This document shows positions 1-30,613 of a DNA stretch of 30,613 bases, piece by piece (within the stretch, counting starts at the first letter, position 1; every line of letters starts with the position of its first letter). The notes beneath the pieces are model-generated. The model saw only the letters and a program-made list of their open reading frames with translations, was not told where the DNA came from and ran no database searches. The stretch is from a virus, in the IMG/VR virus record IMGVR_UViG_3300047557_002095, positions 1-30,613 of that record; one strand, 5' to 3'. The translations under genes and the position numbers were made by a program.

Positions 1-127
1 GTGAGTTTATTTACGCTTGCCATGGTGTCTCCGATGAGGACGCGGCGGGAGGAATCGAACCTCCGTCTTAGGTGTTACTCGTCAGTCAACACCCAGCTCT
101 ACCACTGAGCTACGCCGCTAACCTCAC
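1..127. repeat. Terminal exact direct repeat, copy 1 (identical to 30487-30613); end overlap of a circular or circularly permuted genome
   Basis: The first 127 nt recur base for base as the last 127 nt. The repeat cuts through a CDS (the N-terminus of 30171-30509 reappears at 1-23) and duplicates the tRNA-like gene. It therefore looks like a contig overlap, not a biological duplication. Confidence 0.9.
41..119 (-). tRNA. tRNA-like gene: Val(GAC)-type body with an 8-nt insertion in the anticodon loop (15-nt loop, or an extended anticodon stem)
   Basis: Minus-strand read: GCGGCG/CGCCGC acceptor stem; U8; D arm GCTC-AGTGGTA-GAGC (A14, G18, G19); anticodon stem GGGTG/CACCT enclosing TTGACTGACGAGTAA; 5-nt variable loop AAGAC; T arm GGAGG-TTCGATT-CCTCC. 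No CCA is encoded, and positions 1:72 would be an A:G mismatch. Confidence 0.7.
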
Positions 128-130
128 TTA

Positions 131-460
131 TTAGGTTTGATCTACAGCGTCGTAACCTTGAACGATGAGGTGCAACTCAACGTCTAAGGCAGAAGCGCCC
201 AAATCATAGGTTTTAACCCGCACTGCTGTAGAAGTAGCAGAGCTAACAAGAGCAACACCAACAGCAGCTCCTCCGCAAGTAGCCGAAACAATCGGCGCAC
301 GAGCGAATGGCTCATTGAAGGTAACAGTGTAATCACCAGTTCCGTTAACAGTCAAAACACCGTCGAATTGACCAATCTTAATGGAAGAGGTTGAAACACC
401 ATCAATCTTGAAATGAAGCTGACGTGGCAAACGTTGAGGACATTTAATTTCGCGTAACAT
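131..460 (-). CDS. Hypothetical small structural protein (head-associated or decoration candidate by position)
   Basis: 109-aa ORF immediately downstream of the major capsid gene in the late operon. Beta-rich composition. No motif recognised. Confidence 0.6.
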   Translation of the reverse strand: MLREIKCPQRLPRQLHFKIDGVSTSSIKIGQFDGVLTVNGTGDYTVTFNEPFARAPIVSATCGGAAVGVALVSSATSTAVRVKTYDLGASALDVELHLIVQGYDAVDQT

Positions 461-483
461 GGTTTATTCTCCGTGGAATAGTA

Positions 484-507
484 GGAGGGTGAGTCGCCCC
501 ACCCCCC
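484..507 (-). other. GC-rich stem-loop between the capsid gene stop and the next gene
   Basis: GGAGGGTG...CACCCCCC gives 7 bp with one mismatch and an 8-nt loop. No U-run follows on the minus strand, so it is not a classic terminator. It could be an attenuator or mRNA stabiliser. Confidence 0.35.
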
Positions 508-519
508 GACCAGTTTTAA

Positions 520-1734
520 TTAGACTGCCAATCCACTGATGACGCCGTGGAATGGAGGTACGATGTAGGACTGCAAGTATCCACCGAAGCGGAAGCTGTA
601 GCTATCGCTCGATGCATCACGCAACAACACAGTGCCGTCGTCGTCAAAGAATCCGAAGTCAGGTCTGTGGTGGATGCTGATGAAGTTATCGTTCAAGAGG
701 TACACGCGGTCGTCTTCACAGAAGCGCTCTGGGAAGATACCTACTGGGCCAGCAGCAGACATGAATTCCAAACCACGGAAGCTGATCTTGCCAACCAAGT
801 CTTGAGCGCGAGGATCAAGCAAGTATTGCTTTTGGTCTTCGAGGATATTCAAGAGCTTACGGAATTGAACGAAGGAGCAGATGATCAAGTTAGGTACTTT
901 ACCAGACTTGCGCTGAACTTCCATCATGCCTTGGTTCAAGAGGTCAGCAGTGATACCTGCACCAGATGCAGCGATCTGAGCAGATGCCTGCCAACGACGA
1001 CCAACGGTGATGCTGTACTGAGTACCGGAAGTAGCATCGAGAACACCCTTCAAGCCCGAAGGATCGTTGTCCTTAGAGTTTTGCATGTAAAGGGTCTTTG
1101 CGCCAGAGTCAGCAGTCAAGTCCACAGATCCGCTGATGCGGGAAAGGGTGAGAGTGCGGGTAGCAGGAGCTACAGCAGTAATCTCCCAAACAGCAGCAGT
1201 GGAGTATGGGTTAGCTACGGAGTCTACGTTGATGTAATCCTTTTCTTCAAAGTTAGACTCTTTCCAGGTAGCAGCAGAGATAACAACGGTAGGAGCAGCA
1301 GCAGTACCACCAGCAGCAGCAGCACTGGTTACACCGAGGCTACCAGTTCCGTCGTTGAACAAAGAGCGGGACATATTGCGCATCCAAGATTCAACTGCCT
1401 TTTGGGTAGAGAATTTGGTGAGTTCAATGAACGCGCCTTCAGACACGGAAGCAGCTTTGATAGCTTCACGGTCGATCTGACCTACAGCGTACATTTTCTT
1501 TGCTTCAATCACAGCGTCTTGGATTGCTGCGTAGTTAGCAATAGGGAGAGAGCCCGAACCAACACCGCCAGAGAAGCTGGTAGGAACTGCGATGTCCATA
1601 CGCTTACCGACGAAGTTGTATTCTTTCTTTACGCGTCCGAGAAGGACGTTTGCGCTGTTATAGGTATTGTCTGCGAGTTTGCCATACTTAATCTTGAATA
1701 GATTAGAGGCAGTGCTTAAGCTAAATTGTGCCAT
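520..1734 (-). CDS. Major capsid protein
   Basis: 404-aa ORF after the portal and scaffold genes. Size and position are typical of an HK97-fold coat protein. Strong codon bias: no TTA, CTA or TCA codons over about 385 codons, which leaves the codon-aligned antisense frame open. Confidence 0.75.
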   Translation of the reverse strand: MAQFSLSTASNLFKIKYGKLADNTYNSANVLLGRVKKEYNFVGKRMDIAVPTSFSGGVGSGSLPIANYAAIQDAVIEAKKMYAVGQIDREAIKAASVSEGAFIELTKFSTQKAVESWMRNMSRSLFNDGTGSLGVTSAAAAGGTAAAPTVVISAATWKESNFEEKDYINVDSVANPYSTAAVWEITAVAPATRTLTLSRISGSVDLTADSGAKTLYMQNSKDNDPSGLKGVLDATSGTQYSITVGRRWQASAQIAASGAGITADLLNQGMMEVQRKSGKVPNLIICSFVQFRKLLNILEDQKQYLLDPRAQDLVGKISFRGLEFMSAAGPVGIFPERFCEDDRVYLLNDNFISIHHRPDFGFFDDDGTVLLRDASSDSYSFRFGGYLQSYIVPPFHGVISGLAV

Positions 1735-1752
1735 GGTTTCATTCCTTTATGG

Positions 1753-2964
1753 TTAGATGTCGTCAAAGAACAGTGGATCACTTCCGCCCCGTTTAGGGCC
1801 GCTTTCCACATGAGCTTTTTTCAAGGTTTTAGTAATTTTCTTAGACAACTTTTTTGCCGAGTCATTGGCATAGAGTTGGTTGATCACTTCCTCGATCTCT
1901 GCGCGGTTCGCGTCAGTTTGGATCGCAAGATTAGCAAGCTTTTCGACCTCATCATAATTGCCAGCAAGTTCTGGATTAACTTCAGCTAGTTTCGATTCAA
2001 TCGTTTGAACTAACTTCATGTTATCCCAGTATTTGCCGACCTGTTCAGGCGTAATCTGGTTAGGATCAAACCCATTTTTAACGAGATCGTCATACGCTTG
2101 GACGAAGTCCGACTTCTGCATCTCAAAGGAGCTCATTACTTCCTGAATCTTTCCTTCCATCTCCTTTACCTTTGCTGCTTCCACTTGCGCGGATTTGGCA
2201 GCTTCGGCCTTGGAACGGTAGTATTGATTCTCTTCCTCAAGACGCTTTAGACGTACTTCCTCAGGTGTAAGTGTACTCTCTTCCTCTACAGCTTGTCTAA
2301 TTTTCTCTAGAGCATCGGTGTAGAGCTGCTGACCGTCAACCCCGAGCGTTTCACTCATGAATTCCATGAAGCCTTTTAGGTCTTTTTTTTGGGAGAGTAG
2401 TTCATGAGACTTCTGAACCACTTCATTCATTTTAGCTCGGCTAGTTTCAAATTCTTGACGCTCGGCCTTGTGTTTACGGAATAGATCGTCCAAGTGGCGC
2501 TGCTGGGAGTAACGGTTGATTACTTCCTGAACAGGTACTTCGACGGTCTTTCCGTCAACCTTAACAGTCACTAGGGCGTCGGCGGCCACTTCAAGATCCT
2601 TGTCACCGTGTTTAAACTTCAAAGCTTTCACGGCTTCTTTGGTCTCTTTAGCCTCCTTCTCTTTACCCTTAGTGGTTTTTACTTCATCTTTTTCTTCGCT
2701 GGCTTTTTCTTTGCTGCTTTTTTCTTTGCCATGTTTTTCTCCTTTCTCAGATTTGGTTTCTAAAACTTCCTCAAGATCATCGCCCTCTTCAGATCTGCGC
2801 TGGGCGGTCTTAACTTGTGGCTCATCACTTAAACCCTTACGCCAATTATCAACGGCGCTTAGCTCATCCCAGCTTACTGGCGAGCTTCCGCCTACAACTT
2901 CAATGGGTTCCTGTACGCTTGCAGTTTCTACATTCACTGTAGTCTGTGGTGTCGATTCACTCAT
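1753..2964 (-). CDS. Scaffolding protein candidate
   Basis: 403-aa ORF between portal and capsid. Highly charged with helical or coiled-coil character, including a K/E-rich low-complexity stretch (KSEKGEKHGKEKSSKEKASEEKDE). Confidence 0.6.
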   Translation of the reverse strand: MSESTPQTTVNVETASVQEPIEVVGGSSPVSWDELSAVDNWRKGLSDEPQVKTAQRRSEEGDDLEEVLETKSEKGEKHGKEKSSKEKASEEKDEVKTTKGKEKEAKETKEAVKALKFKHGDKDLEVAADALVTVKVDGKTVEVPVQEVINRYSQQRHLDDLFRKHKAERQEFETSRAKMNEVVQKSHELLSQKKDLKGFMEFMSETLGVDGQQLYTDALEKIRQAVEEESTLTPEEVRLKRLEEENQYYRSKAEAAKSAQVEAAKVKEMEGKIQEVMSSFEMQKSDFVQAYDDLVKNGFDPNQITPEQVGKYWDNMKLVQTIESKLAEVNPELAGNYDEVEKLANLAIQTDANRAEIEEVINQLYANDSAKKLSKKITKTLKKAHVESGPKRGGSDPLFFDDI

Positions 2965-10655: not shown

Positions 10656-10873
10656 TCCATCTTGAGCACTGTCCTGGATGCTCTGATCCACTATGCAGAA
10701 TCGTCCGTGGTGCTACAGTGACATCTAATCGCGATGAGGTAACGTGCAAGGTATGCGTAAAGATATTCACTTTGAAACCTGTTCAGTGTGTCACGTCGCA
10801 GTCCTCGGCCCGCATCCAGAGTTCAAAGGCTACCTCAAGTGCCCAACGTGCGGGTTCTCGAAGAAAGAAGTAA
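10652..10873 (+). CDS. Small zinc-ribbon protein (CxxC...CxxC)
   Basis: HCPGC...x22...CKVC in the first 36 aa. The tail after 10760 is S/R/K-rich and overlaps a second CxxC ORF in another frame. Confidence 0.5.
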   Translation: MIHLEHCPGCSDPLCRIVRGATVTSNRDEVTCKVCVKIFTLKPVQCVTSQSSARIQSSKATSSAQRAGSRRKK

Positions 10874-30051: not shown

Positions 30052-30091
30052 GTTTTTTCCTCCCCGTCCTGAAGGCGGTTCTTAGTGAAAG

Positions 30092-30123
30092 GCGGGTTAA
30101 TTCCGTCCATGAAACTAACCCGC
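30092..30123 (-). other. 8-bp hairpin in the leader of the fibre operon
   Basis: GCGGGTTA (30092-30099) pairs with TAACCCGC (30116-30123) around a 16-nt loop. On the minus strand only UUU follows. Confidence 0.4.
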
Positions 30124-30139
30124 GTGATCGCCGTAGACA

Positions 30140-30169
30140 ATTATAATTCTATTTTTTCTGAAAGATCAA
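30140..30169 (-). promoter_or_regulatory. Internal sigma70-like promoter upstream of the fibre genes
   Basis: Minus strand reads TTGATC (30164-30169), 18 nt, TATAAT (30140-30145). Confidence 0.5.
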
Positions 30170-30170
30170 A

Positions 30171-30509
30171 CTAACGACGCTTATCGTAGTAAAGATCTAC
30201 CGAAGCAGTGCAGGTAGTGGTACCACCTGTGAAGTCAAAGATTGCCCGGACATAAGTCATCCCAAACGTGGTCGCCCGAAGAACTTCAGCTCCAGTGCCA
30301 GTCTTTGCTGCAAAGGTAATCCAGTCGAGCCAGTTAGAATTGTCTGGACTGGTTTGAATCTTAACCACAAGGCTCGTGCCAGCTCCCAATGCAGTCACAT
30401 TTAGTAGACCGGCATAGTCAACTTGTAAGCCTTCAAGGGTGTAGCTCGAACCATTGGTGTCACCGGACACAGCGCCCGATGAGAGAGTGAGTTTATTTAC
30501 GCTTGCCAT
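30171..30509 (-). CDS. Hypothetical small structural protein
   Basis: 112-aa beta-rich ORF with a GGAG ribosome-binding site. It lies immediately downstream of the tRNA-like gene on the circular map. Confidence 0.6.
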   Translation of the reverse strand: MASVNKLTLSSGAVSGDTNGSSYTLEGLQVDYAGLLNVTALGAGTSLVVKIQTSPDNSNWLDWITFAAKTGTGAEVLRATTFGMTYVRAIFDFTGGTTTCTASVDLYYDKRR

Positions 30510-30613
30510 GGTGTCTCCGATGAGGACGCGGCGGGAGGAATCGAACCTCCGTCTTAGGTGTTACTCGTCAGTCAACACCCAGCTCTACCACTGAGCTACG
30601 CCGCTAACCTCAC
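30487..30613. repeat. Terminal exact direct repeat, copy 2 (identical to 1-127)
   Basis: Same as copy 1. The unique genome length is 30,486 bp. Confidence 0.9.
30527..30605 (-). tRNA. Second copy of the same tRNA-like gene, inside the terminal overlap (same locus on the circular map)
   Basis: Identical sequence to 41-119, offset by 30,486 nt. Confidence 0.7.

Follow-up and report, generated by a model that had tools for sequence, protein, structure and literature searches.

What is a tRNA-shaped gene with an abnormal anticodon arm doing between the structural genes of a phage? The question is raised by an 83-nt element on the minus strand (119..37) of a 30,613-nucleotide stretch of viral DNA, IMG/VR record IMGVR_UViG_3300047557_002095 (hereafter the window), where it sits in the late operon. 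The first-pass annotation, made from the letters alone, read it as a tRNA-Val(GAC)-like gene with eight extra nucleotides, perhaps a short intron, in its anticodon loop. Comparison with related loci indicates instead that it is a non-decoding tRNA mimic, or 'anticodon-less tRNA', and that it belongs to a conserved phage family of tRNA look-alikes in which the anticodon arm has been replaced.

Most of the element is an ordinary tRNA. It reads AGCGGCG-UA-GCUC-AGUGGUA-GAGC-U-GGGUGUUGACUGACGAGUAACACCU-AAGAC-GGAGG-UUCGAUU-CCUCC-CGCCGCG-U-CCU, where GGGUGUUGACUGACGAGUAACACCU is the 25-nt arm (94..70) and the rest makes up a cloverleaf whose acceptor, D and T arms are normal. The features first taken as signs of a canonical body (U8, A14, G18G19, a 5-nt variable loop and the T arm GGAGG-TTCGATT-CCTCC) were all confirmed, as were two irregularities, the lack of an encoded CCA and the A1xG72 mismatch. 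The Rfam tRNA model (RF00005) matched with 49.8 bits, above its gathering threshold, and put an 11-nt insertion in the anticodon loop; the whole RNA was predicted to fold as a cloverleaf (-36 kcal/mol, z = -3.2 against shuffled sequences). The reverse complement of 70-94, GGGTGTTGACTGACGAGTAACACCT, contains the stem GGGTG/CACCT with a G.U pair at its base and 15 nt enclosed, just as had been described. The enclosed part does not, however, form the CUGACGA heptaloop with an A/G closure that had been drawn on top of it: in the best fold, 7 bp are followed by a bulged G, three further pairs (ACU/AGU) and a GACG tetraloop (-10 kcal/mol, z = -3.6). Nor did a tRNA finder return valine. ARAGORN without introns called Ser(tga), by way of a forced and false variable arm, and with introns allowed (-i) it called Thr(agt) with an 8-nt intron, so that the three identities contradict one another.

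To place the element we turned to the 80 IMG/VR loci that encode a relative of the window's capsid protein. In 34 of them ARAGORN reported a single 79-84-nt 'tRNA', roughly 400 nt downstream from the capsid gene, and gave these syntenic orthologues the isotypes Ser, Val, Pro, Leu, Ala, Phe or '???'. A covariance model, R1, built from an alignment (A1) of 26 distinct copies of the element, gave 78.7 bits on the window's copy and matched 38 of the 80 loci; each of these matches was on the coding strand. Two further loci, L081 and L121, were matched as well. The element is found across capsid identities of 61-97%; the most similar capsid, at 97%, is that of L081, which comes from an independent NCBI metagenome. 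Some members, L009 and L033 among them, fall below the Rfam tRNA threshold despite belonging to the family, and the exact arm sequence had no match in IMG/VR. The position is equally constant. In all loci carrying it the element lies on the same strand as its neighbours, 8-13 nt after the upstream stop codon and 10-25 nt from the Shine-Dalgarno (SD) sequence and ATG that follow. The upstream neighbours, homologues of a 109-residue protein (p109) in the window, end in ...QG(Y/F)DAxDxT*; the tRNA-like occurs alongside both p109 variants, with no linkage to one type.

Every stem of the family shows strong covariation. In the pair statistics, computed on an R1-guided alignment (A2), 92% of cells were paired and both-sided changes occurred in 21 of the 24 pairs, giving a covariation score of 0.74, compared to 0.21 for shuffled data (0/500) and at most 0.19 for slid partners. 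The acceptor helix was 99.5% paired, with double changes at all seven pairs; taken together the acceptor, D and T helices were paired at 99-100%, D pairs 10-13/22-25 at 100%, and helix 3, the long arm, had double changes at all eight modelled pairs. The columns of the D arm were invariant or nearly so in A1, and the nucleotides that make tertiary contacts in tRNA were kept. Position 1 pairs with 72 in 31 of 33 distinct members, the A1xG72 mismatch being common to the window and L081. These two differ by a compensatory change in the T stem (GGAGG/CCUCC to GAAGG/CCUUC) and at the bulged base of the arm, where L081 has C in place of G. The mismatch, the missing CCA and the non-canonical arm might suggest a tRNA pseudogene in decay or a functionless artefact of assembly, but we regard either as extremely improbable. 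The architecture is common to an independent assembly and about 40 related loci, every stem shows compensatory changes, and the length and loop of the arm are constrained; the L081 change and the related loci rule out a unique degenerate copy or an assembly error.

What, then, has replaced the anticodon arm? Each member folds with a long hairpin where the 17-nt anticodon stem-loop would be. All 27 distinct arms are 23-25 nt long, with 6-10 predicted pairs and usually a bulge or small internal loop, and in 20 of the 27 the tip is GACG. The pair that closes this tip is U-A in the window's group, C-G in the group of about 80% capsid identity, G-C in the 68-72% group and A-U in L053, and the stems below it are wholly rewritten between subgroups. 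The other tips are CGCGGCA or UGCGGCA (group 3), CCGAAGA (L050) and GUGUACA (L029). On this comparison, the 'GAC' of the window is part of the conserved GACG loop motif, and its U33 and A37 are stem bases. The tandem duplication of TGAC to which attention had been drawn is not conserved, since L081 has TTCACTGAC there. The position of the bulge also varies, and we rejected a reading of the hairpin as an MS2-operator-like structure for that reason.

These arms bear directly on whether the element could decode, either as a tRNA-Val(GAC) with an 8-nt mini-intron or with an expanded anticodon arm. Such a reading draws on what remains when UGACGAGU is deleted, namely UUGACAA in the window and UUCACAA in L081, both Val-type loops with U33 and A37; L005 also keeps CU at positions 32-33. 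Restoration is possible only in these three. In most groups (groups 2-4) the enclosed segment begins AG, AA or GA, so that there is no U33 and no deletion of 6-9 nt can restore a 7-nt anticodon loop. The G/C difference in L081 is uninformative, because any base at position 34 keeps Val identity and because it falls on the bulged base. The 8-nt insert folds as a continuous helix with one bulge, the segment as a whole is a conserved, covarying helix, and neither a bulge-helix-bulge motif nor a group I core was found at the insertion; Rfam yielded no intron family, its sole match being tRNA. A mini-intron was rejected on these grounds. The expanded-loop decoder that had also been proposed fared no better: known decoding tRNAs have anticodon stems of 5-6 bp and none longer than 6 bp (PMC7609411), compared to 10 bp and a tetraloop here, and the late genes make no special demand on GUC, their rarest Val codon (75 of 586 Val codons). 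Compared to the canonical tRNAs of phages (RF00005), the element shares the acceptor, D and T arms, the tertiary nucleotides, the 5-nt variable loop and co-directional embedding among phage genes; it differs in its 23-25-nt tetraloop arm, where they have a 5-bp stem and 7-nt loop, and in that its orthologues share neither anticodon nor isotype. ARAGORN and Rfam reported no transfer-messenger RNA. We therefore give a decoding role next to no credence.

The surroundings of the element narrow the possible functions. The window has an exact 127-bp terminal overlap (1-127 = 30487-30613), so features near either end are seen twice; the assembly is of circular type (or terminally redundant), with a length of 30,486 bp. 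The genome is that of a small, podovirus-like phage. Its minus strand encodes terminase, portal, a probable scaffold and a major capsid protein of SU10 type, followed by p109, the tRNA-like, a 112-residue protein (p112) and large tail or fibre-like open reading frames (ORFs), while the plus strand carries Gam, Erf, SSB and a metallophosphoesterase. The first stop codon of p109 (131-133) is followed by a second in-frame TAA, and the element begins 11 nt after the first; from discriminator U73 to the ATG of p112 there are 16 nt, with a GGAGA SD inside that gap. The first-pass annotation had given 12 and about 17 nt. The element is co-directional with the late operon, and the tight spacing leaves no room for a promoter or terminator of its own: only weak promoter-like matches were found, inside p109, and a terminator scan of window positions 1-2000 found none. 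An SD-like GAGG lies directly 5' of the element, and an equivalent GAGG, GGAG or AGGAGG with no start codon behind it follows the p109 stop in L008, L010, L013 and L026. The motif may have been left over from a compact stop-SD-ATG junction such as distant relatives have. Coordinates are collected in Table 1.

Table 1. Positions of the tRNA-like element, its parts and its neighbours in the window; the last row gives similar elements behind the terminase gene of other loci, in their own numbering.
Feature	Coordinates	Strand	Remarks
tRNA-like gene, 83 nt	37..119	-	position 1 = 119, discriminator U = 40, tail CCU = 39-37
Acceptor stem, 5' strand AGCGGCG	113..119	-	A1 unpaired against G72
D arm GCUC-AGUGGUA-GAGC	96..110	-	best-conserved part of the element in the family
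Elongated 'anticodon' arm, 25 nt	70..94	-	7 bp + bulged G + 3 bp + tetraloop
Apical GACG tetraloop	80..83	-	closed by U84-A79
5-nt variable loop AAGAC	65..69	-	Rfam match, alignment A1
T arm GGAGG-UUCGAUU-CCUCC	48..64	-	Rfam match, pair statistics
Acceptor stem, 3' strand CGCCGCG	41..47	-	Rfam match, pair statistics
SD-like GAGG directly 5' of element	122..125	-	possible relic SD
p109, upstream late ORF, 109 aa	131..460	-	no function assigned; stop 11 nt before element
p112, downstream late ORF, 112 aa	30171..30509	-	weak match to a tail-protein family
p112 start codon	23-21	-	in terminal overlap; SD GGAGA at 32-28
Second copy of element	30523..30605	-	terminal overlap, so the same gene and not a second one
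tRNA-likes after TerL in other loci	L216/L207 2720-2806; L218 3840-3922; L219 3842-3925; L217 3780-3871; L220 1936-2020

Two plain hairpins were also seen in this part of the operon. One, of 10 bp with a GNRA loop (GGGGGGUGGG-GCGA-CUCACCCUCC; -22.7 kcal/mol, no U-tract), directly follows the capsid stop codon (461-519, minus strand) and is likely a 3' stabiliser of the capsid message. The other lies in the 119-nt intergenic region after p112 (30052-30170, minus strand), where a 13-bp hairpin (GCGGGUUAGUUUC...GGAAUUAACCCGC) is followed by CUUUC; p112 is therefore bracketed by this hairpin and the tRNA-like.

If the element does not decode, what could it do? The explanation we favour, at a little less than even confidence, is that host tRNA maturation processes the mimic, which would split the late message and release an RNA of about 80 nt. 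The element would be co-transcribed with the late genes, and its L-shaped body would be recognised by the tRNA-maturation machinery of the host. RNase P would act on the 5' side; on the 3' side, endo- or exonucleolytic trimming would proceed to the conserved N73-C74-C75, with a CCA-adding enzyme taking part. The polycistronic late RNA would thus be cut between p109 and p112, uncoupling the stabilities of the head-proximal and tail-proximal genes. The released RNA would be stable, and its long arm would keep it out of decoding. The conserved length of the arm and its GACG cap most likely serve as a contact for some partner, to judge from the pattern of conservation.

The tail of the element is in keeping with this. 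Bacterial RNase P pairs with C74 and C75 of its substrates (the RCCA-P15 interaction). Of 33 distinct elements, 26 have CC at these positions, followed by U in 13, C in 10 and A in 3; the retention of C74-C75 without A76 would fit recognition by RNase P and repair by a CCA-adding enzyme better than the need for a charged end. There are also precedents. Li and Altman in 2003 and Alifano in 1994 are said to have described cleavage of bacterial operon mRNAs by RNase P. The enzyme processes the phage M3 and C4 RNAs as well as mRNAs (PMC11143913), and the tRNA-like Y RNA of M. smegmatis, YrlA, is an RNase P substrate that acquires CCA (PMC4201824). In E. coli, tRNA bodies whose anticodon stem-loop has been swapped for a hairpin are recognised, precisely processed and stable (PMC3753655).

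A processing site for RNase P and RNase Z between head and fibre genes was among the roles first suggested, and it is the one that the comparative evidence favours; several observations nevertheless weigh against it. Positions -1 and 73 can pair in 20 of the 33 elements, and a GG in the leader often pairs with C74C75, which makes a closing helix of 8-11 bp; the SD-like motif upstream of the element is often engaged in the same way. Such pairing disfavours canonical RNase P cleavage at +1. Although the 12-bp acceptor/T coaxial helix and the T/D elbow are present, in many members the leader-CC and -1:73 pairing could mask the tail. Plain hairpins already stand after the capsid gene and p112, so a tRNA shape is not needed merely to stabilise a 3' end. 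Pure punctuation accounts for neither the conservation of the GACG cap nor the fixed length of the arm. Finally, GACG-capped mimics lie behind the terminase gene in an unrelated family (below), a hint that the released RNA, and not its position, may carry the function.

The same junction in relatives suggests a further role. The flanks are homologous throughout (alignment A3), with ...QG(Y/F)DAxDxT* upstream and an SD and ATGGCAAG... downstream, and what lies between them changes. The tRNA-like occupies the junction at capsid identities of 61-97%. In L001, L006 and L082-L086, with capsids 90-92% identical, it is replaced by a 14-bp hairpin followed by U8 (-23 kcal/mol, z -6.5); a simple terminator scan missed this hairpin in L001 owing to its loop-size limit, and it is supported by folding. 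L036, L041, L043, L049, L055 and L057 have other stable hairpins, some with U-rich tails. In distant relatives (L046, L051, L052, L058, L059, L063, L065-67, L080 and L156) the junction is reduced to 0-17 nt, often the SD only. The tRNA-like, interchangeable in position with hairpins and terminators, thus fills a slot that elsewhere serves RNA 3'-end or stability elements. Some tRNA-likes themselves have a U-tract directly after the acceptor stem, in the same spot as the U8 of L001: U8 in L004 and L042, U5 in L005 and UUAUUUU in L002 and L003. The form of an intrinsic terminator is complete in L004 and L042 and partly so in L005 and L003; in some relatives the tRNA-like thus has the geometry of a terminator stem, which suggests that it also acts as one. 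In the window the acceptor stem is followed by UCCUCAUCGG, which does not make an intrinsic terminator; the window, where the corresponding sequence is UCCUCAUC, and L081 lack a U-tract, as do most members of group 2.

How do other functions compare with processing by the host? The element could be purely structural, a tRNA-shaped terminator stem or exonuclease barrier that stays on the upstream mRNA, is never cut by RNase P and yields no small RNA of its own. Sister phages put a hairpin and U8 in exactly this slot, U-tracts follow the acceptor stem in L004, L005 and L003, and pairing between leader and trailer extends the closing helix in many members. We nonetheless think this unlikely, as the window and most of group 2 have no U-tract, a simple hairpin would suffice and yet the D/T-loop tertiary nucleotides and NCC are conserved, and the GACG cap is left unexplained. 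The likeness to intrinsic terminators after head genes, of which T-phi after gene 10 of T7 is an example, lies in the place in the operon, in the sister hairpin and U8 of the identical slot and in the U-tracts of L004, L005 and L003; the window's element differs from them in having no U-tract and in forming a three-way junction with tRNA tertiary features. More doubtful still is an aminoacylatable, non-decoding tRNA-like, comparable to plant-virus tRNA-like structures and non-ribosomal aminoacyl donors, whose charging would rely on the identity of the acceptor stem alone. In its favour, NCC is retained at the tail, seven loci encode CCA (L024, L025, L031, L216, L218, L219 and L122), and several group-4 members combine CCA with G-1:C73, the acceptor end of tRNA-His. 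A common identity element is absent, however: there is no G3:U70, the discriminator may be U, G, C or A, and -1:73 is variable, and the window itself has A1xG72 and no A76. A primer was rejected, as there is no second site complementary to the 3' 17 nt, and so was an antisense RNA, as the complement of the loop, CTCGTCAG, occurs in the genome only at the gene itself.

A stronger challenger, possible though in our estimate on the unlikely side, is that the element is a natural 'tRNA scaffold', in which the GACG arm of the released small RNA is the main effector, as the ligand of a host or phage factor, and the body serves only processing and stability. Candidates are an anti-defence decoy, a Y-RNA-like adaptor and an anticodon-pairing loop (UGACG complements nucleotides 33-37 of tRNA-Asp(QUC)). 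The arm speaks for it, with GACG in 20 of 27 arms over 61-97% capsid identity while stems change, a covarying closing pair and a length of 23-25 nt, and so do the elements of like architecture, with encoded G73-CCA, that lie after the terminase large-subunit gene (TerL) in L216, L218 and L219 and that a high-GC phage, L122, has as well, together with a Ro60-like gene next to a long-arm tRNA-like with a Ro60 motif in L178. The engineered tRNA scaffold is a precedent (PMC3753655). On the other side, Pfam and PHROG scans of the window's ORFs showed Gam, Erf, SSB, metallophosphoesterase and AlpA but nothing recognisable as a Ro60, ligase, CCA enzyme, synthetase-like or other RNA-binding protein; the element has no more than GNCG in common with the Ro60 motif GNCGAAN0-1G; the genome has no complementary target elsewhere; long-arm tRNA-likes of other phages end in an inert C(UUCG)G loop; and close sister phages manage without the element, with a terminator in its stead. 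A decoy for anticodon nucleases, as first suggested, is conceivable; a tetraloop is a poor mimic of an anticodon loop. A broader version would have unrelated phages encode 'anticodon-less tRNAs' that host enzymes cut from structural-gene operons and that display a fixed-length, GACG-capped arm as a ligand; we consider this conceivable but somewhat unlikely. The ligand might act, much as a Y RNA does, as an adaptor or decoy for a tRNA-binding defence factor or an RNA-decay factor of the host, or as a 'codon-display' loop that captures the anticodon of tRNA-Asp.

Similar mimics recur well beyond this family. Two pattern scans of IMG/VR, aimed at tRNA bodies in which a long hairpin takes the place of the anticodon stem-loop, returned class-I-type bodies of this kind on many unrelated viral contigs, with caps that include C(UUCG)G (L172, L201, L206) and GACG (L207). 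The L207 element lies 9 nt after the TerL stop codon and before a head-morphogenesis gene, and of its seven closest TerL relatives (TerL identity 44-100%), five carry a tRNA-like at the equivalent position. In three of these five (L216, L218, L219) the arm runs through a lower stem, an A-rich 5' bulge and an upper stem to a GACG cap, and G73-CCA is encoded; a high-GC phage, L122, has the same design. Replacement of the anticodon arm on a tRNA body thus recurs in phages, as does the GACG cap, at differing operon positions. The UUCG caps, taken with the replaceability of the element by terminators, argue that the body alone can be the functional part.

Other tRNA-likes that came to light depart from this design. 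In L178 (IMGVR_UViG_3300042935_002429), a Ro60/TROVE-vWA-like gene (phrog_850, 19-1230) is followed by a long-arm tRNA-like (1915-1996), and then by a homing endonuclease and a tRNA array. The arm contains GCCGAAG, the Ro60-binding motif of YrlA (GNCGAAN0-1G), and the predicted RNA looks like an unpermuted, Y-RNA-like tRNA mimic. A separate conserved family of 82 nt, whose anticodon stem has 6-7 bp and whose 9-13-nt loop contains CUGGACGCC or CUAGACGCC, was seen in viral contigs of 20-65 kb (L094, L098 (3153-3234), L100, L103, L106, L118, L128, L145, L151 and L155). L137, a 20-kb viral contig, carries a type II hammerhead ribozyme (10786-10855; 51.6 bits, above gathering) and a tRNA array; one tRNA-like of this array has a loop of 14 nt, AAGCCGACGAAACA. 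Lastly, tRNA-Gly(UCC)-like genes with a normal CUUCCAA anticodon arm bear an extra hairpin in the variable region, which is unusual for class-I tRNA (L161, L168, L171, L188, L200, L208 and L212).

Known RNAs offer several partial parallels. Some tRNA-like structures act as processing signals, as in 3'-end formation of MALAT1 by mascRNA and in the tRNA punctuation of mitochondrial transcripts. As in these and in the RNase P sites of operon mRNAs, a tRNA-shaped module is set in a longer transcript, RNase P would set the ends and a small tRNA-like by-product with a non-functional anticodon arm results; here, however, the arm is elongated and sequence-constrained rather than degenerate, and cleavage is a proposal. 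The P1/P7 C4 RNAs (PMC11143913) are likewise small phage RNAs excised from a longer transcript by tRNA-processing enzymes, but they act antisense on defined phage targets, whereas our element has no loop-complementary target in this genome and no Rfam C4 match. The YrlA Y RNAs (Chen et al. 2014, PMC4201824) are tRNA mimics with conserved D and T arms and a longer helix at the position of the anticodon arm, which carries a protein-binding motif; they can be substrates of RNase P and CCA-adding enzymes, and they occur in phages. YrlA is circularly permuted, has its ends in the long helix and a closed acceptor, carries GNCGAAN0-1G and has a Ro60 gene on the same strand within about 4 kb (PMC4201824). 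The window's element has the normal tRNA order with an open acceptor stem and reads GACGAG at the motif, only GACG being constant in the family because the fifth base follows the closing pair, and its 30.5-kb genome has no TROVE or phrog_850-like ORF. Rfam at permissive E-values returned only tRNA, a mascRNA match of 12 bits being noise, with no YrlA or C4-type match. The engineered tRNA scaffold (Ponchon & Dardel; PMC3753655) also keeps the acceptor, T and D arms and replaces the anticodon stem-loop with a hairpin, but is an artificial expression tool, while the insert here is natural, short and conserved. Overall, the element appears to work most like the tRNA-like processing signals, and it is built like the tRNA scaffold.

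Full-text literature searches found no description of such an element in phage late operons. A 2023 catalogue of viral structured RNAs includes unnamed tRNA-like candidates that ARAGORN calls only sometimes, and these could overlap the present family. Among 50,697 phage records, blastn with the first 3 kb and tblastn with the capsid gave no match. The sole capsid match among 185,579 reference genomes, at 50% identity, was L156 (DATBTE010000389.1), a 50,952-bp contig of a Pseudobdellovibrionaceae metagenome-assembled genome, which keeps the order portal-scaffold-capsid-p110 without the tRNA-like; it hints weakly at the host range of the wider phage group but does not suffice to assign a host.

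What does the family mean for phage biology? In practice, tRNA finders miscall such genes as Ser, Thr, Val, Pro or '???', and these miscalls corrupt phage tRNA inventories, arguments from codon usage and predictions of recoding. If processing by the host is what the element undergoes, then these phages punctuate their late polycistronic message with the tRNA-maturation machinery of their host, a principle known from mitochondria and from MALAT1/mascRNA for which we found no description in phage structural operons, and such punctuation and ordinary terminators might be able to replace each other. Should the GACG arm have a partner of its own, the engineered tRNA scaffold would have its natural counterpart in this family, which would form a new class of small RNA in phages; and if the arm acts as a ligand, it would represent a new kind of phage non-coding RNA effector.

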